Below, piece after piece: positions 1,956 to 28,974 of a stretch of 64,000 nucleotides of DNA (positions are counted from its first letter, which is position 1; each line of letters begins with the position of its first letter). The notes beneath the pieces were generated by a model. The model saw only the letters and a list, made by a program, of their open reading frames with translations, had not been told where the DNA came from and ran no database searches. The position numbers and the translations under genes were made by a program. The DNA is from a virus: the UHGV virus genome UHGV-0371537; one strand, written 5' to 3'.

Positions 1956-2525
1956 TTATTTTACCACTTTTAACTTCACATCGCGCTCGAGCAGATACAC
2001 ATACTCATGGGCGGCTTCACGCGACATATAATGGGTAGATGGGGTGCTGTGTTTGTTCAGCGTCTCTTTTAATACAACGCGCTCAGCCCAACCATTAATA
2101 GATGTACCATAGAAGCCGATGATGGCTGCAAAATAAATGTTGCTAGTTTCAGGCTCCAGGATATAGTTCACCGTGAAGCACACCTCTGAGCGAACACCGG
2201 ATGGCCTGATGCCGATGCGTGAAGATGGCATGTCTTGTTCAACACATAAATGGCGGAAGCGGTCGCGACGAGCTTGTGATGACTCCATGAGTTCGCTGCG
2301 CAGATACGTGTCGTCAATATTGAAAGAGAAGGTGTTGGCACCTTTCAAATCAGATTTCGCCAAATCAATGGCCGAAGGAATAATTCGGCGGAAATTAATT
2401 TCTTTCTTGGTCAGGCGTAAAACTTCCGACGTGATCATTTTAAAATCGATGTCGTTTACTTTCTTCCCTTCATATTTTTCTAACAAAGGGATGATGTGTT
2501 TTAATACAGCAGTGTTGATATGCAT
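1956..2525 (-). CDS. hypothetical protein (189 aa)
   Basis: Only long ORF in the first 2.8 kb; divergent from the gp6-like gene; no motif recognised. Confidence 0.5.
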   Translation of the reverse strand: MHINTAVLKHIIPLLEKYEGKKVNDIDFKMITSEVLRLTKKEINFRRIIPSAIDLAKSDLKGANTFSFNIDDTYLRSELMESSQARRDRFRHLCVEQDMPSSRIGIRPSGVRSEVCFTVNYILEPETSNIYFAAIIGFYGTSINGWAERVVLKETLNKHSTPSTHYMSREAAHEYVYLLERDVKLKVVK

Positions 2526-2680
2526 GAGAGGTTCCTTAATATACGGTTGATTGACCGGACTATTATATTGGTGAAGGTGTTATTGAATTAAAGGCCAACA
2601 AAACAGGAGCGCGGTTTATTAATAGGCAGAAACTACTTTTCTACACCACTTACAAACTGTATCGTATCGCTGTGCCCTTT

Positions 2681-2773
2681 GAGTTGTGAGTGTTAACGAA
2701 CAACGAAAAGCAGCCTCCATGGCTGTGGAATGGGACTGCCTGTCAAGGCGGTGTTACGAGCGAAGCGAGTAGG
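2681..2773 (+). repeat. bipartite conserved intergenic element, copy A (upstream of gp6-like gene)
   Basis: GAGTTGTGAGTGTTAACGAACAACGA (2681-2706) and GAGCGAAGCGAGTAGG (2758-2773) recur at 46405-46459 with one mismatch each. Confidence 0.55.
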
Positions 2774-2824
2774 TTAACTCTATTCGAATAATATAACGCG
2801 CGAGGAAGATCCATTCCCGTCCGG

Positions 2825-2831
2825 CTAAATA
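2825..2831 (+). promoter_or_regulatory. late-promoter-like CTAAATA motif upstream of the gp6-like gene
   Basis: CTAAATA about 45 nt upstream of ATG 2872; same heptamer recurs before other structural genes. Confidence 0.4.
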
Positions 2832-2871
2832 TCTTCAACACCATATTCAAGATCAGGTGATGGAGATTAAC

Positions 2872-4650
2872 ATGGCCACACAAACAGTTCCCTCACTCGA
2901 TGTCAGAACATACGAGTTCCTTCTTAAGAAGCGAATGAAAGCAGACCCGACCTTCAAAGACTATGATTTTGAAGGTTCCGGCCTCAGTGCCATCATTCGC
3001 CTCTTGGCCTCGGATGCCAATGCCGTCGGGTTCATGCAGAACATGCTGAATGGCGAAAGCCATCTTCACTCTGCCCAACAGCGTTCCAACGTCGGTCTTG
3101 CGGCGGGGTTCCTTTCATACACCCCTGACAACTACAAGGCTGCGTTCCTGTATGCCAACGTAACAGTCACACCGTATGATCCAACAACTGCCCCTGAAAC
3201 GATCGTAATCGATCGACGTGCGATGTTTATTGGTGCAAAGGATGGCAAGTCATACAACTTCACTGTCGAAGCCCCGGCGAGTGCTACTTTGGTGGATGGG
3301 TCTTACAAGTTTGAAAACCTGAAACTGATCCAGGGCAACTGGCTGTACAAGTCATATGATGTCGAAGGAAGTGCGATCTCGTCTTATGTGATCCCTTCTT
3401 CAACTGTAGACATCAATCATATGGTGGTACAGGTGGCGGCTTCGGATACAGCCGATGAGACCAGCACGTACTCTCGTTATGTCAGCCCATTTGACCTGAG
3501 TCAATATGCTCAGCTCTACTTTGTGGAACTTGGCCTGGATGGGATGTACACCTTCGAATTTGGAGATGGGTACATCTGCAAACGTGTGGAAGATGGGAAC
3601 GTCATATATCTACAGTACCTGGAAACGTCTGGCGAAGATGGCAACGACATCACCTCTTTGTCTTCAGCTTCTTCCATCGGTGGATTCAACCTCGTGGATG
3701 TTGAACTGGTGTCCGAGCGTTCTTCCGGTGGTGCGCCACCAGAAAGTATCGAAGACACGAAACGCCTTGCTCCTCTGGCCTACCAGGCCGAGGGCGCGGC
3801 TGTAGCTGAGATGGATTACGCTGTTCTAACAGAACGCTTGTTCTCCAATGTGTCACGCGCCAAAGCATATGGCGGAGATACGCTCTCTCCTCCCGACTCC
3901 GGCTATGTCTACATTGCTGTCATCCCTACTACTGGTGAGTCACTTTCGGACGCGGAGAAGGCAGATATCGTGGCGACGTTAGATAAGTACAACGTTGGCA
4001 CCATCACACCAAAGATCGTCAACGCCGACATCACGTATATCGACGTGACAACAACGGTGTTCTGGGATTCAACATCTACAGCATACAACGAAGAGCAATT
4101 GAAAACCGTTGTTGTAAACGGGGTGCAAAACTGGGGCGCATCTAATCTTGAAGGGTTCGAAGAGTTGTTCGACAAAGAGCAACTGCAAGAAGCCATCACC
4201 AAGATGGATCGTTCTATCGCTTCCAACATCGCTTCGGTGAAATACAAACGTCACTTTAAACCAGATTACGGCGTTCTGGATAGTTTCACTTTCGATTTCG
4301 ACAGATCTATCGCTTCTGGTTCGGTGCGCATCAGTGGGTTTAAACCTCTTCCGGCTGAAGTTGATTTCACGTACTACATACGAGACGTCAATGGTGTGTT
4401 GAATATGTACAAGGTGAGCACCGCCGACACGACGAAAGAATATCTTGTACAGGCTGTGGGTACTGTAGACTATGTGAATGGTGTTGTGGAATTACAGCAG
4501 ATCACAGTTTCGAATTACAACGCCGAAGGAGTAACGATTGTGGTGTCTCCTGATGGACTGAACCAGAACCTACAGGCTGTGCAGAACCAGGTGCTCCGCA
4601 TCGGTGCAGTAACTGTCCTGCCGGAGGTGCGCTATGTCCAAAGATCTTAA
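2872..4650 (+). CDS. gp6: baseplate wedge protein, T4 gp6-like
   Basis: N-terminal DYDFEGSGLSAIIRLLA matches the T4 gp6 DYDFEGS region; track ORF begins at GTG 2857, ATG 2872 has GGAG SD 6 nt upstream; CTAAATA late-promoter motif at 2825. Confidence 0.75.
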   Translation: MATQTVPSLDVRTYEFLLKKRMKADPTFKDYDFEGSGLSAIIRLLASDANAVGFMQNMLNGESHLHSAQQRSNVGLAAGFLSYTPDNYKAAFLYANVTVTPYDPTTAPETIVIDRRAMFIGAKDGKSYNFTVEAPASATLVDGSYKFENLKLIQGNWLYKSYDVEGSAISSYVIPSSTVDINHMVVQVAASDTADETSTYSRYVSPFDLSQYAQLYFVELGLDGMYTFEFGDGYICKRVEDGNVIYLQYLETSGEDGNDITSLSSASSIGGFNLVDVELVSERSSGGAPPESIEDTKRLAPLAYQAEGAAVAEMDYAVLTERLFSNVSRAKAYGGDTLSPPDSGYVYIAVIPTTGESLSDAEKADIVATLDKYNVGTITPKIVNADITYIDVTTTVFWDSTSTAYNEEQLKTVVVNGVQNWGASNLEGFEELFDKEQLQEAITKMDRSIASNIASVKYKRHFKPDYGVLDSFTFDFDRSIASGSVRISGFKPLPAEVDFTYYIRDVNGVLNMYKVSTADTTKEYLVQAVGTVDYVNGVVELQQITVSNYNAEGVTIVVSPDGLNQNLQAVQNQVLRIGAVTVLPEVRYVQRS

Positions 4651-5488
4651 TAACGGCCACAACGGGGTAAAGTATGAGACTCCGTTGTTCTACCAGAACG
4701 AGTTCCCGGCGTTCATTGAGTTCATGGACACTTTCTTCAATTGGTTGTACCGCCAGCAGGGGTTCACTGAAGAAGAGATCTTGTCTTATCTTGCGGAGCC
4801 AGATGCTTGGGTGAACCCGAACACCGAAGATTCACCCCTTGAGCAGCTGATTGATATCAAGAAACGAAAGACTCCGGGAACCGAAGCCAAGGATTTCTTG
4901 GAAGACAAGTTCCTGACCCGCACGTTTGAAAACATGATGGCGCTTGATGCAGAAGAACTCTTGGACGCAGATGGTCGACCGCTCATATCTATGGAAGATA
5001 AGAATGAACGTATCGATGATTGGTATAGCGACTTCGGTTTCCAGAGAACGGTTGACAAGAACTTCCTTGAATTCGGACACTTTGTACCAGTGGGTTCAGA
5101 TTCACTTGTGACATCTGATGGAGACACGTTTTCTGTTTTCGTGGCCGGGGTTCGACGCCGAACCCTGGACCATGTTCGTTGGTTGAAGTTGCTGAAACAT
5201 ATCTACCGTATTCGTGGGACGAAGAAAGCTATCGAACTGTTCTTCTGGATTTACTTTGGATGTCCTGTGTCTGTATACTATCCAAAGGAAGAGATCGGCG
5301 GCCTGGATGATAACTTTGAATGTGATGGCGCAACCGGGATGCGTGATGACTATTACTATGATGAATTCACTTATGTGATAAGAGTTCCTGGCGACGTATC
5401 TGATTTTGAAGGCGTATTTGAACGCGTCTTCCGTCAGCATTTCCATCCTGCTGGGTTTACCGTATTCCTGGAAAGTTCAAGGAGTTAA
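4634..5488 (+). CDS. hypothetical virion/baseplate-associated protein (284 aa)
   Basis: ORF overlapping the gp6-like stop with GGAGGTG SD; position inside the baseplate module. Confidence 0.5.
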   Translation: MSKDLNNGHNGVKYETPLFYQNEFPAFIEFMDTFFNWLYRQQGFTEEEILSYLAEPDAWVNPNTEDSPLEQLIDIKKRKTPGTEAKDFLEDKFLTRTFENMMALDAEELLDADGRPLISMEDKNERIDDWYSDFGFQRTVDKNFLEFGHFVPVGSDSLVTSDGDTFSVFVAGVRRRTLDHVRWLKLLKHIYRIRGTKKAIELFFWIYFGCPVSVYYPKEEIGGLDDNFECDGATGMRDDYYYDEFTYVIRVPGDVSDFEGVFERVFRQHFHPAGFTVFLESSRS

Positions 5489-5490
5489 AA

Positions 5491-6702
5491 ATGGCCGATT
5501 TCCTGAGTCAATATACAGGTCAGCAGATTGATGCAATACTTGGTTCTGTTGACGACAAAGTAAGTAAGAATGATGTTATCAACGATTTCGCCGTTGATGA
5601 CCCGTTGTTTCCTCCGTCAGCTCATTTGACATATGAGCTGAAGCGTTCTGTGGATAATATCTACGACATACTGGAAAACAAAGTGATCCGCACCGACGGT
5701 GGTGAACAAACTATCAACGGGCGGAAGACTTTTGCCGCAGAAATCCGAGCCAATGCTGGTGTCAGTATCCCTACGGGGAAGAAACTTACCATCACAGATG
5801 AGCCAGTTGATTCCACTGATGGCGTCAATCTGTCTATGCTGCGCAAGCACGGCGTGAGTGAAGACACTGCCGGGGTTAACTCTGGTCTGAAAATCGAGTT
5901 GTTACCTGGTGGCTACAACAAACTCACTTTCGATGGCACAAATCTGGCCACTTACTCTGGTACTGGTGTGCCAACTACCATGTTACTGGTGAGTGGAACC
6001 GACACTGTCAAGTACGACACATCTGCGTTTGTGACTTCTATCTTCAATGATACGCGTTTCAACGCTTATCTGAAGGTTGTTGATTATGATGCCGATATGT
6101 TGGATATCCAGTCTCAGTTCAACACTGTCAACACCACTCTGGCTGCGAAGGTCAACACGTCGACTTACAACTCCAAGATGTCTAGCCTGGACACCAGTAT
6201 ACTGGATCTGACGAACAACAAAGTGAACGTCAGTACGTATAACACGAAGATGGCGGCGTTGGACAGTTCCATCAGTGGCATTCAGAGTGATATCGGCACG
6301 ATCAATACCACGTTGTCTGGAAAGGTCAACACATCGACCTACAACGCCAAAATGACAAGCCTGGACGCCGACATTGCTGCCCGTGTGAAGATCGGGAAGA
6401 CCAACCCAAGCGGTATCACTGTCTCTGCTTCTGGGAACTCTGCGTTGCCCGACTTCGATTTGGTGAACCTTTGCCAGGTGTTGATCAGTGCACAATGGGG
6501 TACAGGCAACGTCGTGGATACGTACCGCGTGACGATCACCCGTGACGGGACTATCAAGTCTGAGCTGTTGGTACAGAAGTCCACTTCCGGTACGGTGACA
6601 TTCGCGGGTTCTGTAGTGTCTTCAAAACTTCGTTTGACGATAACAAATGCGAACACGACGACTGCTTGCTCCGTTGACTACAATCTAGTCGCTTCTTTCT
6701 AA
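5491..6702 (+). CDS. fibre-like structural protein with three tandem ~30-aa repeats
   Basis: Repeats of the form NT.NTTL..KVNTSTYN.KM..LD..I between aa ~204-298 (nt ~6100-6390); Ser/Thr/Asn-rich; sits in the tail-fibre module. Confidence 0.6.
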   Translation: MADFLSQYTGQQIDAILGSVDDKVSKNDVINDFAVDDPLFPPSAHLTYELKRSVDNIYDILENKVIRTDGGEQTINGRKTFAAEIRANAGVSIPTGKKLTITDEPVDSTDGVNLSMLRKHGVSEDTAGVNSGLKIELLPGGYNKLTFDGTNLATYSGTGVPTTMLLVSGTDTVKYDTSAFVTSIFNDTRFNAYLKVVDYDADMLDIQSQFNTVNTTLAAKVNTSTYNSKMSSLDTSILDLTNNKVNVSTYNTKMAALDSSISGIQSDIGTINTTLSGKVNTSTYNAKMTSLDADIAARVKIGKTNPSGITVSASGNSALPDFDLVNLCQVLISAQWGTGNVVDTYRVTITRDGTIKSELLVQKSTSGTVTFAGSVVSSKLRLTITNANTTTACSVDYNLVASF

Positions 6703-6710
6703 AGTGAAAA

Positions 6711-6751
6711 CTAAATACCCCTAGATGAAACGAACACATTTAGGGGTATTT
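6711..6751 (+). promoter_or_regulatory. late-promoter-like CTAAATA plus 11-bp hairpin covering the SD region
   Basis: CTAAATACCCCTA (6711-6723) pairs with TAGGGGTATTT (6741-6751); ATG 6755 follows 3 nt later. Confidence 0.5.
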
Positions 6752-6754
6752 GAA

Positions 6755-9736
6755 ATGGCTAATAAACCAACACAGCCTGTTTTCCCTCTCGGTCTGGCGG
6801 CTGAAGAGCAGTCTACTTTGGCTGGTGTCCTCAACACGGGTACGATTGAGCATGGACCAGATGCTGTCCTGACTTTACCAGAGGGTAATGCCAGCGCAGG
6901 ACTCCCGTCTTCCGTTCGCTACAATGCCGACTCCGACGAATTTGAGGGCTTCTATGAAAATGGTGGATGGTTGCCGCTGGGTGGCGGTGGTATCCGCTGG
7001 GAAGTCCTTCCGCATGCCTCTACGGCAACGCTCACTGAAGGGCGAGGCTATCTCATTAATAATACCACAGGGGCATCTACAGTGGTTCTCCCTTCCCCTA
7101 CGCGTATTGGGGATTCCGTTACTATTTGTGATGCTTATGGGAAATTTGCCACTTACCCATTGACCGTGTCTCCTTCTGGAAATAATTTGTATGGCTCCAC
7201 TGAAGACATGGCTATAACAACTGATAACGTATCAGCAACGTTCACTTGGTCTGGACCTGAACAAGGTTGGATTATTACATCCGGCGTCGGTCTTGGCCAA
7301 GGTCGTGTCTACAGTCGTGAAATCTTTACAAAAATTTTGGCGTCTGAAACAAGTTCTGTCGCTCTCAATACTCCACCAACAATTGTGGACGTGTATGCTG
7401 ACGGAAAACGTCTTGCGGAATCCAAATATTCACTAGATGGGAATGTAATCACTTTCAGTCCTTCTTTGCCAGCCAACACAGAACTTCAGGTGATTGAATA
7501 TACTCCTATTCAATTGGGTAATGTCAGTGGTTCTGGTTCTTCTACGATTACCTGGGTCTATAATGGGGGTTCAGCGATTGGTGGTGAAACCGAAATCACG
7601 TTGGACGTCGTTGTTGATGATGTTCCGGCCATTGATATAAACGGAAGTCGCCAGTATAAAAATCTGGGATTCACATTCGATCCATTAACCAGTAAAATCA
7701 CTCTTGCGCAAGAACTGGAACCAGAGGATGAAGTTGTTGTAATTATCAATGGAACACCAAACATCTATAATCAAATTGATTATACTTTGCGGGAAGTTGC
7801 TCGAGCAACCAATGTTAAAGATACAGAGGTCGTTTATTTTAGTGTTGGTGCTGCGTTAAGTGGGTATAAAGTTATTTATGACAAGGAGACGCAAAGGGCT
7901 TATCCCTTGCCTGCTGATATTGTCCCTGGTACTACTGCTGTCAGTCTTAGTTCTTCCGCTATACTTGTGCATTCTGCTGGTAGTGTTGATCTGGGCGCAT
8001 TAGCTGTATCTCGTGAAGAATATGTTACATTGTCTGGGACATTTGATTCTGGTGCTGTCATCAATGTTAAAAATGAATTACTCACCCATACTGATGGAAA
8101 GTATCGTTGGGATGGTACACTTCCTAAAACCGTTGCTCCTGGCTCAACTCTTATGACAACAGGCGGCGTTGGTGTTGGCGCATGGATTAGTGTTGGTGAT
8201 GCTTCATTGAAGTCAGAATTGGCTAAACCTACAGGAGCAGGTTTTTCAGGTTTTGATAAGTCAATTGATTACGAAACTGGTACTGTTGGCAATGCGCTTA
8301 AGAAAATTATAAATGTCAACCCGGATATGTATCCATCATTACAGGATGCGATTGATGCTGCGGCAGCTTTAACAGGTTTAGAACATGCACCAAGTAGTGC
8401 TGCTAACCATCCTGACTGGCTACAACCTAACACTGTAAGCAAAGTTATCAGGCTGAATGGGAAGAAATATCCTATCAGTACGACACTACACATTCACGGA
8501 GATGTTAGCATTGATGCTGGTTTCGGTGGGGTGTACCTCACCGATGACTTCGTTGCAGACTCCTCTGGCTATGCTGTTAAATGCGATAAAGGGACGGGTA
8601 ATCAATACGCTGGGCATATCAGCAACTTATTAATTGATGCCCGTGCAAAAACTGTTAATGGGTTTAAGATATCCGATGGCTATGCTAACAAGTTAGAAGG
8701 CATTTACGTAGCCAACGTTGATGGTCATGGCATCCATATTGCTGGCGGTATGGGTGTGCACCTATTGAAGTTTTATGCTGTTGGTGTATTAAAACCAACT
8801 AATCCGCTCAGCACAGCCCACATTGTTGAAGGTAGCGATCATCAGGTTAGCATGGGTGAAGGTCGTTATTTCCGATTTGGTACCTGGGTTCGTGGTGGTG
8901 GTAATAACAGAATTGGTAAGGTGCACAACTGGGGCATGTATGACGATACAGTCACCGACCAGAACTCAAGGATGAAATGCTGCTTTGTTGTACAGAACTC
9001 AATAAACAATTCCTTCAATCAATGTTTTGCAGATTCTCCATCAAAATGGGACTACACGAAAGCTAATTTAGATCCTGTAGATGGTTATATTAACGGCGGG
9101 ATTGGTTTTTTTATTGATGGTGGAGCCACCGGTAATACGTTCTCTCAATGCCAGACGTTTGTGAATATGAATGCGTTTAATGACGCAGGGTTATCTGCAT
9201 ATGCGGCATCACTAATGCCATTCGCCGTTGGCAGTATCAATTGCTCATTCATTGAGTGTGAAAACTCAAACTCACCAGCATGGGTGGCAAGACTGATAAC
9301 TCATATTTACTCTGTGGATCAGGCATTTACTAACATACTCGCAGCTAAGAATTTTGTTGGTATAGAGTATGATATGGTTTGCAATGGTACAATTTTCAGG
9401 AAAAATGTTGGAGTTCCTGTATTGGTAAGAAATTCAAAGTTCGAGACGCCAACAGCAAGTTATGCGCCTAACTTTTCAGACGCATCTTACATCGCAGCTA
9501 CAGTTACAGGAGATGTAACAATAACACCAGCAGTATTAACAAATACACTAATTGGTTATGTTGAGGTTCTTTTGGCTGTCTATTCAACAACATCTAAAAC
9601 AATAACATTTGGTGCAAATGTTATATTAGCAAGTAGTACCCCATCTTTGACAGCAGCTGGAACACAAGTTTTTAGGTTGTCAACAACTGATGGAGGAACG
9701 ACTTGGTTCTGTAAGTTCGAGAGTGCTTACCCGTAA
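6755..9736 (+). CDS. tailspike protein, long form with N-terminal extension (TSP4-like)
   Basis: Internal anchor domain (aa ~350-510) paralogous to the N-termini of the 9839 and 15080 genes (VSREEYVTL, VKNELLTHT, KYRWDG); track start ATG 6725 lies in a hairpin loop, ATG 6755 follows the CTAAATA motif and hairpin. Confidence 0.8.
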   Translation: MANKPTQPVFPLGLAAEEQSTLAGVLNTGTIEHGPDAVLTLPEGNASAGLPSSVRYNADSDEFEGFYENGGWLPLGGGGIRWEVLPHASTATLTEGRGYLINNTTGASTVVLPSPTRIGDSVTICDAYGKFATYPLTVSPSGNNLYGSTEDMAITTDNVSATFTWSGPEQGWIITSGVGLGQGRVYSREIFTKILASETSSVALNTPPTIVDVYADGKRLAESKYSLDGNVITFSPSLPANTELQVIEYTPIQLGNVSGSGSSTITWVYNGGSAIGGETEITLDVVVDDVPAIDINGSRQYKNLGFTFDPLTSKITLAQELEPEDEVVVIINGTPNIYNQIDYTLREVARATNVKDTEVVYFSVGAALSGYKVIYDKETQRAYPLPADIVPGTTAVSLSSSAILVHSAGSVDLGALAVSREEYVTLSGTFDSGAVINVKNELLTHTDGKYRWDGTLPKTVAPGSTLMTTGGVGVGAWISVGDASLKSELAKPTGAGFSGFDKSIDYETGTVGNALKKIINVNPDMYPSLQDAIDAAAALTGLEHAPSSAANHPDWLQPNTVSKVIRLNGKKYPISTTLHIHGDVSIDAGFGGVYLTDDFVADSSGYAVKCDKGTGNQYAGHISNLLIDARAKTVNGFKISDGYANKLEGIYVANVDGHGIHIAGGMGVHLLKFYAVGVLKPTNPLSTAHIVEGSDHQVSMGEGRYFRFGTWVRGGGNNRIGKVHNWGMYDDTVTDQNSRMKCCFVVQNSINNSFNQCFADSPSKWDYTKANLDPVDGYINGGIGFFIDGGATGNTFSQCQTFVNMNAFNDAGLSAYAASLMPFAVGSINCSFIECENSNSPAWVARLITHIYSVDQAFTNILAAKNFVGIEYDMVCNGTIFRKNVGVPVLVRNSKFETPTASYAPNFSDASYIAATVTGDVTITPAVLTNTLIGYVEVLLAVYSTTSKTITFGANVILASSTPSLTAAGTQVFRLSTTDGGTTWFCKFESAYP

Positions 9737-23959: not shown

Positions 23960-24676
23960 CTAAATACCTTCAAACGTATTTCTGATAAATTCGATAATAC
24001 GACTTTCATGTTTAAACCATTCAGTCGCACCGTCAAATCCCTTGTAGTTCATACTAAATGACATTTCATGAGCCTTTCTTTCCAGTTCTAACACGAATTG
24101 TCCATCATTTGACTTAAAAACTTCTAGAACATTGAACTCAAATGGAGTTGATCTTCTTAAAGATTTAAATCTATTATTTGGTGAATTGGACACCCCGATT
24201 TTCATACAGCCTTCTTCGCTGGTCAATATGTACAAATAACCGACTTTAAAAGGATTGTATCCGGAAGTTGCGCAGTAGGGGCACCAACTTTTACCATTCA
24301 CCAAATTACAGTATCTTGACTCCCAACGATGTCCTTCTGAACATTCCATAAGGCAAACTGTCACATTATCTTTATACTTTCCACCAATAAATTCTATGAA
24401 TTTACCACCGTTGGTTTCAGCATGGTCGGTTATTCTCTTTTTAGATTCTTGCTGGGTATTTCTCTTGTTGCCATTACATGTTGGGCACCAACTGCCTTTA
24501 TTGATCAAATTTCCATAAGATGCTGAACTCCATTGATGCCCTTCACCACACTGTAATATACATTTTGTCTGATTAGTGATAAATTTATCACCAACGAATC
24601 CCTGGAACAAACCACCTTTAGATAAGGCATATTTGTGAAGATTTTGAATAGCAGTTTCTTCTGTCAGGATTTTCAT
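23960..24676 (-). CDS. T5orf172 (GIY-YIG superfamily) domain protein with two N-terminal zinc ribbons; homing-endonuclease-like
   Basis: Two repeats C-x4-C..GH.W....C.L.N.KSWCP.C then GYLYIL....MKIGVSN....R..SLRR.....EWF, typical of T5orf172/MUG113; opposite strand between two neck genes. Confidence 0.65.
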   Translation of the reverse strand: MKILTEETAIQNLHKYALSKGGLFQGFVGDKFITNQTKCILQCGEGHQWSSASYGNLINKGSWCPTCNGNKRNTQQESKKRITDHAETNGGKFIEFIGGKYKDNVTVCLMECSEGHRWESRYCNLVNGKSWCPYCATSGYNPFKVGYLYILTSEEGCMKIGVSNSPNNRFKSLRRSTPFEFNVLEVFKSNDGQFVLELERKAHEMSFSMNYKGFDGATEWFKHESRIIEFIRNTFEGI

Positions 24677-25386: not shown

Positions 25387-26082
25387 ATGGCCAGACCATT
25401 TGAAAAATACTTCTACCATAAGTCTCTAGAGAAGTACATCAACCTCTTCGCCACCATCATGTCGGACCTGAAGGTTGACACAGAGCGTGGGCTGATGGAA
25501 GTTCCTCTACATATGGCTATTGGTCGGCGCAACGACCTCAACAGGAATGTTCCGGTCAATATGCTGCCGTTTGCAACGTTCAGTTTTGGGCAATTCGAAC
25601 CCAATAAGAGCGTTACGAAGTCTTTCCACAACCGCCAATCCACCCCAACAGCCGGGGCGAAGCAGCGCATTCCGATCAATATTGATTTCGAGTACAACAT
25701 TCGTTGTAAGAAATTGATCGAAATGCTACAGGTGTTGGAACAGATTTATTCTGTTTACACACCATCTTTGGACTGTGCTATCAAGGACAACGACACACTG
25801 CAGCAAGACCAGAAAATCAAGATCCAGCTGACAGGACACCAAATGTCTGACAACTGGGAAGGGGATGCCAGTGATTCTCCACACGTGGATTGTACGTTCA
25901 CCTTTGTGCTCAGTGGATTCATCTATGGGTATGATTATTGGGTGGATAACGGCGGTGGTGGGGATCCTAATGGGATCAAAGAGATAATTATAGAAATGTC
26001 TAATGATTTGAAAACGCCGTGGTCGGAATTGCCTGAATGGTTCCGCGTCGATAAAGACGGTGTACATCATCCTGGAGATTGA
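25387..26082 (+). CDS. gp15: tail sheath stabiliser/tail completion protein, T4 gp15-like
   Basis: Synteny plus N-terminal resemblance to T4 gp15. Confidence 0.7.
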   Translation: MARPFEKYFYHKSLEKYINLFATIMSDLKVDTERGLMEVPLHMAIGRRNDLNRNVPVNMLPFATFSFGQFEPNKSVTKSFHNRQSTPTAGAKQRIPINIDFEYNIRCKKLIEMLQVLEQIYSVYTPSLDCAIKDNDTLQQDQKIKIQLTGHQMSDNWEGDASDSPHVDCTFTFVLSGFIYGYDYWVDNGGGGDPNGIKEIIIEMSNDLKTPWSELPEWFRVDKDGVHHPGD

Positions 26083-26783
26083 TTATGAGTGCTATGTCAG
26101 AACGCCTGTTAAACACCCTTGGCGCTATCCAGGCGCGGGATGAAGTCGCTCAAGAAGTCATGGAGAAGACCGCGCCTGTGGCTGGAAAAGATTATGATCC
26201 GGATACAGGTGAATGGTTGGGTGAAAGACCTGCAGGGTATGAGCCTGTGGTGTTCCCTCCTTCACTGGATCCAGAAGAGCTGAAGTCAAAGGAATCCAAA
26301 GTTCCAGACTTTGATGACACGGATGCCACCACGGATTACAAACGCATCCGTGATACGACTTATGCGATGCAGGAAGCCACGATGTTCATGATGGGACAGG
26401 CGGCCAAACTCGCAACGACCACAGAAGCGCCTCGGGCGTTCACAGTCTTCAAGGAGTTGGGTGAACTCATGCGCGGCCTGAACAAAGACCTGATGGAGAA
26501 CCAGAAGACCATCAAGGCTGTTACGGGCGACAAAGAGCCTCCTGAAGAGACGACTGTTGAGGTCACGACTTCCCCTGATGGTACAACGACAGTCAACGTT
26601 GGCAAGCAAGCCAGATCTTCTCGTGATTTACTCAAGACTATTGAAGAGGCGCGCAAACGGGCTGAAGAGCGTACTGCGGCCAAAGCTGTAGGTAAAGAAG
26701 AGAAAGCCGAAGATGTGATCGATGTCGAGGCAGAGCCACAGCCGAAGGAAGAAGGTGAAGACAATGGCGTATCAGAAGCGTGA
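26079..26783 (+). CDS. gp16: terminase small subunit, T4 gp16-like
   Basis: Overlaps neighbours by 4 nt at both ends; central region resembles T4 gp16; charged C-terminus. Confidence 0.7.
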   Translation: MIMSAMSERLLNTLGAIQARDEVAQEVMEKTAPVAGKDYDPDTGEWLGERPAGYEPVVFPPSLDPEELKSKESKVPDFDDTDATTDYKRIRDTTYAMQEATMFMMGQAAKLATTTEAPRAFTVFKELGELMRGLNKDLMENQKTIKAVTGDKEPPEETTVEVTTSPDGTTTVNVGKQARSSRDLLKTIEEARKRAEERTAAKAVGKEEKAEDVIDVEAEPQPKEEGEDNGVSEA

Positions 26784-28974
26784 TGTAGAATACGCCCCGC
26801 TCAAGACGGGGTTTAAGACAGAAGACGTCAGACTGCGTATGGACCAAACGTTCATGCGCAAGCCGTCTGTGCGTGCTCCTCGCGTGGAGTTGATGCTAAC
26901 AGATGAGCAGGAATCGGAGTTCGTCGAGTGCGCGATGGATGCCCATTACTTCGCCGCCAACTACTACAAGATCACGACCATCGATAAAGGCTTCATCCTC
27001 TTTGACATGCACGATTACCAGAAGCAGTTGTTCCATGACTTCCAGGACTATCGATTCAATGCGGTCGTCCAGGCTCGTCAGTCTGGGAAATGTGTAAAAG
27101 GTGACACGCTTGTCACAGTTTACGATACTCTCAGCCAAGAAGAGTTCAGCATCACCGTCGAGGAGCTTCACAGCCGCTTCGAGGGACCGAATCATGCTGA
27201 GCCACTGAATGCCTTTGGTAAACACGATAAGTTCGTAGACAGCCGCTTCGGCAAGCGTTATTTTGTTCGCTGTGATAAGGGCTGGGTTCCGGTTATTGCA
27301 GCACACAAGACAAAACAGTATCAGGAATATGTGGTAATCACGACCACAGGTCGACGCATTCACGTCGCTGATGACCACATGTTCTTCAACAGCCACATGA
27401 AGGAAGTATTCGCCAAAGACCTGGAAGCCGGGTCTCTGCTCCAGACTGAAAATGGTTTGGAAGAAGTTGCAGAAGTGTGGCAGACAGGTGAAATGCACCA
27501 TATGTTCGACCTGCAAGTCAAGTCGAGCGATCAACGATATTACACAGGCGGTTTCCTCAGCCACAACACGACCGTCGTGGCAGCGTTCCTGCTCTGGTAT
27601 GCGATGTTCCACTCCGACAAAGAGATCGCAGTACTGGCGAACAAAGAGAAGCAGGCCATTGAAATCCTTGACCGTATCCGCAAGGCTTATCAGGATCTGC
27701 CATTCTTCCTACAACAAGGTTGTGAGAAGTTCGGTTCTACTCTGATCGAGTTCGAAAACGGTTCTAAGATCTATGCATACGCAACATCATCGGACTCCAT
27801 CCGTGGTCGTTCAGTATCACTCCTGTATGTCGACGAAGTAGCGTTCATTGAAAACGACTTTGAGTTCTGGGAGTCTACATTCCCTGCGATTGCATCTGCA
27901 GAGACTTCCCGTTGTATCCTGACCAGTACACCAAAAGGCCAGCGCGGGTTGTTCTACGATATCGTCACCAAGGCGAATCCAGACCACCCACAGTACAACG
28001 ACTTCAAACTCACGGAGGTGCCTTGGTATCGTGTGCCAACATACACCAAGGATCCAAACTGGGAATCCAAACAGAGGGCGAAGCTGGGGGATGCACGTTT
28101 CGATCAGGAATTCGGTATCAAGTTCCGTGGTTCCGTTGGTTCATTGATCCCGGCCAAGTGTCTGGACAAAATGACCTCGAAGCTCTATCTGGAGCCGAAC
28201 GAGTTCACCAAGATCTACCACGAATACGATCCGAAGCGTATCTACATGGGCATCGCAGATACAGGCAAGGGTGTGGAGGGGGATTACTCTGTTCTGACGA
28301 TATTGGACATCACAGACTACCCTCACAAGATTGCGGCCAAGTATCGAAACAACACGATACCGCCAATGATGTATGCATACACTATCGCCGATATGGGCGA
28401 GAAGTATGGCACATGTCCAATGCTGGTAGAAACCAACAACGACGTGGGTGGTCAGGTAATCACAATTCTATATCAGGAAATTGAATACCCAGAAATCATC
28501 TTCACCACAACAGATGCGAAGGGTACTGGTAAACGAATTGGCGGTCGTCGACCTGAACCTGGTATCAACACCAACAAGAAGGTTCGATCAAACGGTTGTG
28601 CTAACCTCAAGGCGCTTATTGAACGTGAAATGTTGGTTATTGATGACCAAGATACAATTGACGAACTCAGTACATTCGTATGGACTGGGACAAGGTATGA
28701 AGCCGATGATGGTTGTCATGACGACTGTGTAATGCCTCTTGTGCTCTATGCATGGGCGGTGAAACAAGAATGGTTTAGTGATCTCACCAACTCCAGCATC
28801 TCGGTTGATATGAGGGGGCGGTTGTCTGCGATGGAAGAATCTCAGATGATGCCTTTCGGCGGGGTTCTTTCAGCTCCCGACCCACACTCTGTCGAGAGCA
28901 TACCGGGCTTTGGTGGAGTCCAGGTTTATGACGAACGTTCCGGTATGACCATGGAAGAATGGCTGAGACGGTGA
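26764..28974 (+). CDS. gp17: terminase large subunit (gp17-like) carrying a mini-intein in the Walker A loop
   Basis: Exteins read VVQARQSGK|TTVVAAFLLWYAMF (Walker A) and resemble T4 gp17 ATPase and nuclease regions; start taken at ATG 26764 (track ATG 26722 also possible). Confidence 0.9.
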   Translation: MAYQKRDVEYAPLKTGFKTEDVRLRMDQTFMRKPSVRAPRVELMLTDEQESEFVECAMDAHYFAANYYKITTIDKGFILFDMHDYQKQLFHDFQDYRFNAVVQARQSGKCVKGDTLVTVYDTLSQEEFSITVEELHSRFEGPNHAEPLNAFGKHDKFVDSRFGKRYFVRCDKGWVPVIAAHKTKQYQEYVVITTTGRRIHVADDHMFFNSHMKEVFAKDLEAGSLLQTENGLEEVAEVWQTGEMHHMFDLQVKSSDQRYYTGGFLSHNTTVVAAFLLWYAMFHSDKEIAVLANKEKQAIEILDRIRKAYQDLPFFLQQGCEKFGSTLIEFENGSKIYAYATSSDSIRGRSVSLLYVDEVAFIENDFEFWESTFPAIASAETSRCILTSTPKGQRGLFYDIVTKANPDHPQYNDFKLTEVPWYRVPTYTKDPNWESKQRAKLGDARFDQEFGIKFRGSVGSLIPAKCLDKMTSKLYLEPNEFTKIYHEYDPKRIYMGIADTGKGVEGDYSVLTILDITDYPHKIAAKYRNNTIPPMMYAYTIADMGEKYGTCPMLVETNNDVGGQVITILYQEIEYPEIIFTTTDAKGTGKRIGGRRPEPGINTNKKVRSNGCANLKALIEREMLVIDDQDTIDELSTFVWTGTRYEADDGCHDDCVMPLVLYAWAVKQEWFSDLTNSSISVDMRGRLSAMEESQMMPFGGVLSAPDPHSVESIPGFGGVQVYDERSGMTMEEWLRR
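27091..27567 (+). mobile_element. mini-intein (159 aa) within the terminase large subunit P-loop
   Basis: Starts Cys (CVKGDTLV), ends HN followed by Thr +1; blocks F/G-like MFDLQVKSSDQRYYTGGFLSHN; splits GK|T of the Walker A; no endonuclease domain. Confidence 0.8.

Follow-up and report, generated by a model that had tools for sequence, protein, structure and literature searches.

Inteins have been described in the large terminase (TerL) of several phages, and the closest described relatives of the element treated here come from the family Ackermannviridae. The genome paper of Salmonella phage Maynard (Tatsch et al. 2013) reports a terminase intein, as do Luna et al. (2013; PMC3853055) for Salmonella phage Marshall, and the announcement of Klebsiella phage Magnus (2019; PMC6763660) states that its large terminase gene “harbors an intein element”. 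The RefSeq record of Magnus (NC_049462) carries a 477-nucleotide (nt) mat_peptide named “intein”, plus the joined mature terminase, and the protein database holds an entry “intein [Salmonella phage Maynard/Marshall]” (YP_008772116.1) of 159 amino acids (aa). We analyzed a 64,000-nt stretch of the virus genome UHGV-0371537 (hereafter the window), whose TerL gene carries an insert of 159 codons. It matches the inteins of Maynard, Marshall and Magnus in host family, gene, insertion point (RQSGK/TT; slashes mark intein boundaries throughout), length (159 aa, 477 nt; the RefSeq boundaries in Magnus are the same) and catalytic residues. Sequence divergence is the sole difference (73–76% aa identity; 73% to the Maynard/Marshall entry). 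The window intein is already known, an ordinary orthologous copy of an element published from 2013 onward. Its novelty was overrated in the preliminary description of the locus, the same intein being published and annotated in related phages at a “classic” site; as a discovery, a published, RefSeq-annotated intein at a textbook P-loop position matters little. What our analysis adds is its apparent fixation at 159 aa and its kinship to the atypically split TerL inteins.

The Lys/Thr position of the P-loop is the “classic” intein site of Kelley et al. (2016; PMC5050341), who showed splicing of representative TerL inteins from five other insertion sites and argued that terminase function needs splicing. 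The mycobacteriophage TerL1-a inteins of that study share this site with the window intein. They differ in host and in part of their domains: their host is a Terminase_1 protein whereas that of the window is a gp17-type Terminase_6 protein, and some of the TerL inteins studied there carry active endonuclease domains while the window intein has none. A terminase intein was also reported from a Campylobacter phage in 2012 (PMC3322345).

The insert of the window is in frame and free of stop codons inside a single open reading frame (ORF) that ends at position 28974 (Table 1). Its boundary codons can be read directly: TGT (Cys) at 27091–27093, CAC AAC (His-Asn) at 27562–27567 and ACG (Thr) at 27568–27570. 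The flanks are ...VVQARQSGK upstream and TTVVAAFLLWY... downstream. Joined, they give ARQSGKTT, and the Thr at the +1 position (Thr+1) doubles as the Walker A Thr. The limits, terminal residues and flanking peptides given in the preliminary description are exact to the base. That the Cys...His-Asn/Thr arrangement is a chance pattern, a sequencing or assembly artefact or an intron acting at the nucleic acid level has next to no probability. Such patterns are short, and nothing else speaks for this explanation; the insert is in frame without stops, the same 477 nt are found in about 280 independent genomes, and the GC content of the insert (0.49) is no different from that of the rest of the gene (0.49–0.52). 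The strong evidence at the protein level (substitution rates, profile and fold, presented below) already refutes it.

Sequence and fold evidence points to an intein. Taken as a single sequence, the 159 residues match Pfam Intein_splicing (E = 1.8e-5) and TIGR01445 intein_Nterm (E = 5.6e-4), and their matches to solved structures are weak and all to inteins. A family profile built from ten family members (alignment A1) matches in the PDB gp41-1 (1.5e-9), VidaL (6.9e-9), Cat (8.2e-7) and the CDC21 inteins (6e-6); inteins are the only PDB matches with E<0.1. Pfam Intein_splicing (PF14890) matches all ten family members, at best with E = 1.1e-8. The AlphaFold2 (AF2) model, computed from a 42-sequence alignment (A2), is an all-beta single domain with a mean predicted local distance difference test score (pLDDT) of 88 and a predicted TM score (pTM) of 0.81. 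When it was searched against the PDB with Foldseek the top 50 of 50 matches were inteins or bacterial intein-like (BIL) domains, led by VidaL (E = 2.4e-10, TM 0.73/0.80). No endonuclease domain (LAGLIDADG, HNH or other) was found, Pfam at E≤1 giving HINT families only. These results strongly support an intein of the HINT fold without an endonuclease domain. It is called a mini-intein because it totals 159 aa, has only HINT matches in Pfam and is modelled as a single beta-rich domain, as expected from the earlier remark that it leaves no room for a homing endonuclease. The best profile match, gp41-1 (PDB 6qaz, aligned over aa 59–159 of the window intein), is also a phage-borne mini HINT domain. 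It differs in its host, a cyanophage-like DNA helicase, and in its canonical split, which leaves an N part of 88–105 aa, whereas the window intein is contiguous and lies in a terminase.

The second line of evidence is the empty site. The TerL of Vibrio phage K414 reads CRQSGK-TTVVAAFLLWY without interruption, an exact empty site, in a protein that is 56% identical to that of the window over the whole extein and 66% in the ATPase core; the comparison with intein-free relatives suggested at the outset is provided by this phage. The TerL precursor already exceeds the Pfam cut-offs (Terminase_6N 62.9 bits, Terminase_6C 27.8 bits). Splicing in silico raises the Terminase_6N score to 79.9 bits (cut-off 22) and widens the model span covered from 11–198 to 4–200, with Terminase_6C at 28.6 bits (cut-off 22.6). 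The in-silico spliced protein aligns to T4 gp17 (PDB 3ezk, 3cpe) with E = 1.7e-72 and free of gaps across the junction (aRQsGKTTVVAaFL in the spliced protein, SRQLGKTTVVAIFL in gp17), where the Walker A motif SRQLGKTT of gp17 faces aRQsGKTT. We assign the host protein to the T4 gp17-type large terminases, with a Walker A motif predicted to be whole once the insert is removed; the likeness of the restored ARQSGKTT to the T4 P-loop, noted earlier by eye, is borne out by this alignment.

Residues C1, H96, D140, S157, H158 and N159 are invariant in ten inteins down to 32–33% identity, those of Kuja and VAP7 included, and Thr+1 is invariant in all 11 intein-bearing terminases compared. A93, D94 and H96 of block B are nearly invariant across 42 sequences. 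In class 3 inteins residue 1 is not the first nucleophile, and a WCT triplet is present (Trp in block B, Cys in block F, Thr in block G). The window intein is assigned to class 1 from its Cys1, terminal His-Asn and Thr+1; class 3 is ruled out because Cys1 is present and the block F position is occupied by Asp140 rather than Cys. The intein identity and boundary chemistry proposed in the preliminary description are upheld by the profile matches (down to 1e-9), the HINT fold and this invariance.

The class 1 mini-intein very probably splices itself out of the TerL precursor and restores the P-loop. A precursor of ~84 kDa would be translated with its ATP-binding loop physically interrupted. An N-S acyl shift at Cys1 would be followed by trans-esterification with the side chain of Thr+1 as acceptor. 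Cyclization of Asn159, assisted by His158, would then free the intein, and an O-N shift would yield a normal Lys-Thr peptide bond in the GKT motif. Splicing is predicted to yield a free intein of ~18 kDa and a mature terminase of ~66 kDa whose ARQSGKTT P-loop is intact. The spliced junction would read ...QARQSGKTTVVAAF... or ...NAVVQARQSGKTTVVAAF..., while the precursor holds ...QSGKCVKGD... and ...FLSHNTTVVAAF....

The Walker A Lys and Thr bind the ATP phosphates and Mg2+. Judging from the anatomy of the gene and from general knowledge of inteins and Walker A motifs, the unspliced precursor should be inactive as an ATPase, because an 18 kDa domain parts these two residues. We infer that splicing occurs, and it is also a sound inference that packaging would depend on it, because the insert parts the Lys of the P-loop from its Thr and a search of the window found no other terminase; it found no second intein either.

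Several observations weigh against this reading. The window intein scores significantly, yet under the curated cut-offs (PF14890, 25.1 vs 35.8 bits; TIGR01445, 20.9 vs 24.5 bits). The Thr of the block B TxxH motif is Ala93 (A-D-x-H) throughout the family, and the block F His (HRYY) is Gln148 (QRYY, 27532–27534) in nine of nine enterobacterial Ackermannviridae inteins examined. Among the +1 nucleophiles paired with Cys1, Thr is the rarest, accounting for 12% of cases (PMC11766414). A demonstration of splicing for this intein or for any Ackermannviridae ortholog was not found in the searchable literature. Ala93 in place of the block B Thr is a tolerated variant. The block F His is kept in Kuja, VAP7 and nearly all metagenomic relatives, and Gln148 could slow or condition the C-terminal splicing step; Thr+1, the block B Ala and Gln148 could all affect the splicing rate.

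The Gln148 replacement would also suit a degenerate HINT domain that no longer splices and stays permanently in a working terminase. So would the uniform 159 aa of the insert in virtually all enterobacterial Ackermannviridae genomes, together with purifying selection, since a domesticated domain would show the same. However, a folded domain of ~18 kDa would then part the Lys and Thr of the GKT P-loop, the residues that serve splicing only (Cys1, His96, Asp140, His158, Asn159, Thr+1) are invariant at 32% identity, and an intein-free homolog joins the same flanks directly. We consider such a permanent domain quite improbable and retain the self-splicing mini-intein.

Table 1. Coordinates of the TerL precursor gene, its predicted intein and the neighboring small terminase gene in the window.
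Feature	Position	Strand	Basis or remark
Small terminase subunit gene	26079..26783	+	Pfam DNA_Packaging 28 bits vs cut-off 25; gene order as in annotated relatives
TerL (T4 gp17-type) precursor coding sequence, intein-containing, 736 aa + stop	26764..28974	+	ORF list, Pfam, relatives
N-extein, 109 aa, ends ...VVQARQSGK (first half of Walker A, including the invariant Lys)	26764..27090	+	Aligns to T4 gp17 ...SRQLGK
Predicted class 1 mini-intein, 159 aa, Cys1 to Asn159, without homing endonuclease domain	27091..27567	+	
Block A region (C1 V2.. D5 ...)	27091..27129	+	C1, V2, D5 invariant in 10 inteins
Variable surface loop, intein aa 31-46	27181..27228	+	Alignments, model confidence
Block B (GRRIHVADDHMFF), His96 = 27376-27378	27349..27387	+	A93, D94, H96 invariant
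Block F (HHMFDLQVKSSDQRYYTG), Asp140 = 27508-27510	27496..27549	+	M138, D140, Q142, V143 invariant
Block G (GFLSHN), penultimate His158, terminal Asn159	27550..27567	+	G154, L156, S157, H158, N159 invariant
C-extein, 468 aa + stop, from Thr+1	27568..28974	+	Walker B (LLYVDE), RNaseH-like nuclease domain

The intein is found at exactly 159 codons in about 280 records, which are essentially all records with an extein identity of 80% or more (279 inteins at ≥60% identity vs 283 exteins at ≥80% identity). A 52-nt empty-site probe detected no intein-free allele among 50,697 phage records. The intein appears to be fixed in the enterobacterial Ackermannviridae and vertically inherited, a situation that fits a mini-intein removable only by exact deletion in an essential catalytic motif. 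The pairwise ratio of nonsynonymous to synonymous substitution rates (dN/dS) is 0.03–0.21 in the intein, which indicates purifying selection. Its dN is 2–10 times that of the extein, with aa identities of 69–96% vs 79–98%, and because of this faster evolution the intein should be removed before Ackermannviridae terminase phylogenies are computed. Synonymous divergence is also ~2 times higher in the intein than in the extein (e.g., 1.72 vs 0.65) in close pairs such as the window with Ag3, CAU_YEP3 or phiD3, and relative to Escherichia phage A221 the intein protein is 75% identical while the extein is 97% identical. The raised divergence may reflect a deeper or separate history of the intein alleles.

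The window allele is closest to the intein of Yersinia phage CAU_YEP3 (95.6% aa, 87.6% nt identity), and no record of the phage collection exceeds 89% nt identity to it. Divergent inteins of 173 aa in Kuja and 179 aa in VAP7 occupy the same insertion site, and a related intein is found three residues upstream in Campylobacter phage CP21 (PRQ/C...SHN/SSKS). In the extein comparison K414, which lacks the intein, falls together with VAP7 and Kuja, and this implies either precise loss or separate gains of the intein.

A tract of ~400 nt (26734–27140) is 99–100% identical to phage A221 in the midst of 5 kb that are 73–91% identical. It runs from the 3′ part of the small terminase gene into the 5′ part of the large one and stops 50 nt into the intein (breakpoint 27140/27141). 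In CAU_YEP3, pSal-SNUABM-02 and the LIMEstone phages an 879-nt NUMOD3 homing endonuclease gene, F-LimIX, lies at the place of this tract; it is absent from the window. The tract looks like the trace of a recent recombination or gene conversion around the empty F-LimIX site. A swap of the intein core with A221 was also considered and downgraded, the identity beyond the intein being ordinary conservation common to all relatives. A fractured terminase with a split intein was suspected in the two closest relatives and the LIMEstone phages, whose match to the window comes in two pieces with F-LimIX in between. It was rejected: this gene separates the small from the large terminase gene, and each intein is whole. 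In the partial genome of Klebsiella phage TTM-TASP117 (L014, 2201–2880) the intein match is in two pieces over 680 nt, not 477, and the annotated coding sequence (CDS) begins within the intein. This pattern could result from an insertion or duplication in the intein, or from an assembly problem.

A gp17-like terminase with a split intein of unusually long C-part was described by Dassa et al. (2009; PMC2677866), and the GOS-TerL, AceL-TerL and Cat tools were later derived from split terminase inteins of this type (reviewed in PMC11766414). These split TerL inteins (the “Terminase” locus of Dassa et al./GOS-TerL, AceL-TerL, Cat (PDB 6dsl) and VidaL (PDB 6vgv)) have a HINT domain homologous to that of the window. 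In the named TerL inteins (a statement that does not extend to VidaL) and in the metagenomic contig L015 described below, the host is a gp17-like terminase, as in the window. They are encoded by two genes, broken after about 25–37 residues and often with a free-standing endonuclease gene in between, whereas the window intein is part of one polypeptide; its single uninterrupted ORF rules it out as a naturally split intein. Their break point maps to the loop at aa 31–46 of the window intein, and there it coincides with the lowest confidence of the AF2 model (lowest pLDDT at aa 31–50) and with the length differences of Kuja (+14 residues) and VAP7 (+20 residues). The window intein is related to the atypically split TerL inteins but contiguous, and would be spliced in cis.

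In a collection of 5.8 billion proteins, a search with the intein alone gave two matches and a profile search gave 41 proteins. Many of the latter begin about ten residues before an RKF motif (K47-F48 in the window intein) and run through SHN into a terminase C-extein. The idea that all profile hits of 200–300 aa are C-halves of split inteins turned out to be only partly right: the terminase of L015 is truly fractured, those of two other contigs (L017 and L018) are not. L015 (ENA ERZ27279226 k141_324138, a 134-kb contig; 2493–8421) encodes a gp17-like terminase in three genes with two split inteins. One of these occupies the same P-loop site (GK/C...HN/S) as the window intein; its N-extein is followed by a 34-aa N-intein that ends at a true stop, and its halves are separated by a free-standing gene of 380 aa that encodes a DUF559 (Vsr-like) endonuclease domain. 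The other interrupts the protein immediately ahead of Walker B, and its halves flank a 605-aa DUF7487 gene. The arrangement corresponds to the one that Dassa et al. reported first. This phage appears to read TAG as Gln.

That related phages run their terminase from separate pieces, as in L015, could favor a cleavage-only, BIL-like HINT domain whose two terminase fragments cooperate unjoined, and BIL domains do occur among the weaker structural matches of the window intein (6y75). Yet genuine splicing inteins head its sequence and fold matches, the locus retains both a +1 nucleophile and a terminal Asn, neither of which varies, and the pieces of the fractured relatives bear split-intein halves, implying ligation and not mere cleavage. 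Moreover, the P-loop requires a continuous GKT backbone. Cleavage without ligation is even less probable than the degenerate domain discussed above, and the preferred reading remains excision with ligation of the exteins.

A further proposal has two parts: that the intein, rather than being a mere stranded parasite, has been kept throughout the enterobacterial Ackermannviridae as a post-translational switch of the packaging ATPase and, separately, that it can be split into a trans-splicing tool. Taken jointly, we regard it as speculative and unlikely to hold. Such a switch could delay activation of the ATPase or make it conditional, with temperature, redox state, and assembly with DNA or the small terminase as examples of possible triggers. 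The replacement of the block F His by Gln148, specific to this clade, might adjust how fast the last step runs. A split in the loop at aa 31–46 could provide a trans-splicing tool with a short N-fragment that works at 37 °C.

In L017 (5–1078) and L018, both ENA metagenome contigs, the conserved Gln of RQxGK is encoded by TAG, and two genes are called for this reason alone. With TAG read as Gln the intein is contiguous at the P-loop (ASRqTGK/CLFSS...SHN/TTTY). The “split” in these contigs is an artefact of gene calling in phages that appear to read TAG as Gln, and a TAG at the P-loop Gln is a trap for automated surveys of split inteins. In six proteins of alignment A2 (P0020, P0024, P0028, P0030, P0034 and P0038) close relatives of the intein are followed by a C-extein resembling AAA+-type ATPases (ILIIEDAE Walker B, ATFN, LLRxGRL); the intein lineage therefore occupies the P-loops of at least two ATPase families. 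The terminases of phage CP21 (L007, 1985–4430) and Vibrio phage Va1 (L008, 154–3571) are each annotated as a pair of CDSs. In both phages the end of the first resembles an intein N-fragment (CP21 ...FSC/CLENTRVQV...; Va1 ...NFE/CVSGSTIINIF...), and the second CDS of Va1 has a long insert followed by an intein C-terminus (...NGVLNHN/CNFLGS). We take these for probable additional inteins, split or endonuclease-bearing, at other sites of the terminase.

Most of the ~280 related records leave the intein unmarked (e.g., KM209228 phiD3 and MK509462 MK-13) and name the product “terminase large subunit”, “hypothetical protein” or “pretoxin HINT domain protein”. These records thus misrepresent the mature protein together with its ATPase motif. 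The intein is also relevant to anyone expressing these terminases. The family also offers a natural cis-splicing reference for the atypically split terminase inteins that serve as protein-engineering tools, from phages of hosts living at 37 °C. Apparently fixed throughout a clade of therapeutic and biocontrol phages, the intein lends itself well to asking whether P-loop inteins are regulators or irremovable parasites.

Of the 258 phage records matched by the TerL gene, nearly all belong to Ackermannviridae (Kuttervirus, Agtrevirus, Limestonevirus, Taipeivirus and others), and in 253 records the alignment covers at least 80% of the gene. The best match is CAU_YEP3 (90.9%). The best identity of any record over 24 kb of the window is about 89%, and because none exceeds this value the source phage is taken to be an undescribed member of the Aglimvirinae-like group of Ackermannviridae. 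The longest TerL ORF opens at an upstream ATG (26722). The initiation codon is likely the ATG at 26764 (MAYQK...), and this was taken as the start of the CDS because relatives begin at the equivalent position (MAYQK/MAYKK, here alternative amino termini); the gene then shares 20 nt with the 3′ end of the small terminase gene.

The order of the late module is T4-like (neck gp14, sheath stabilizer gp15, small terminase, large terminase, tail sheath), and no tRNA genes were found within the window. Just upstream of the neck gene an ORF of 238 aa (23960–24676) lies on the minus strand, opposite to the surrounding late structural genes. It has T5orf172/MUG113 domains (GIY-YIG-related) and repeated Cys-rich N-terminal motifs, and is probably a free-standing homing-endonuclease-like gene.

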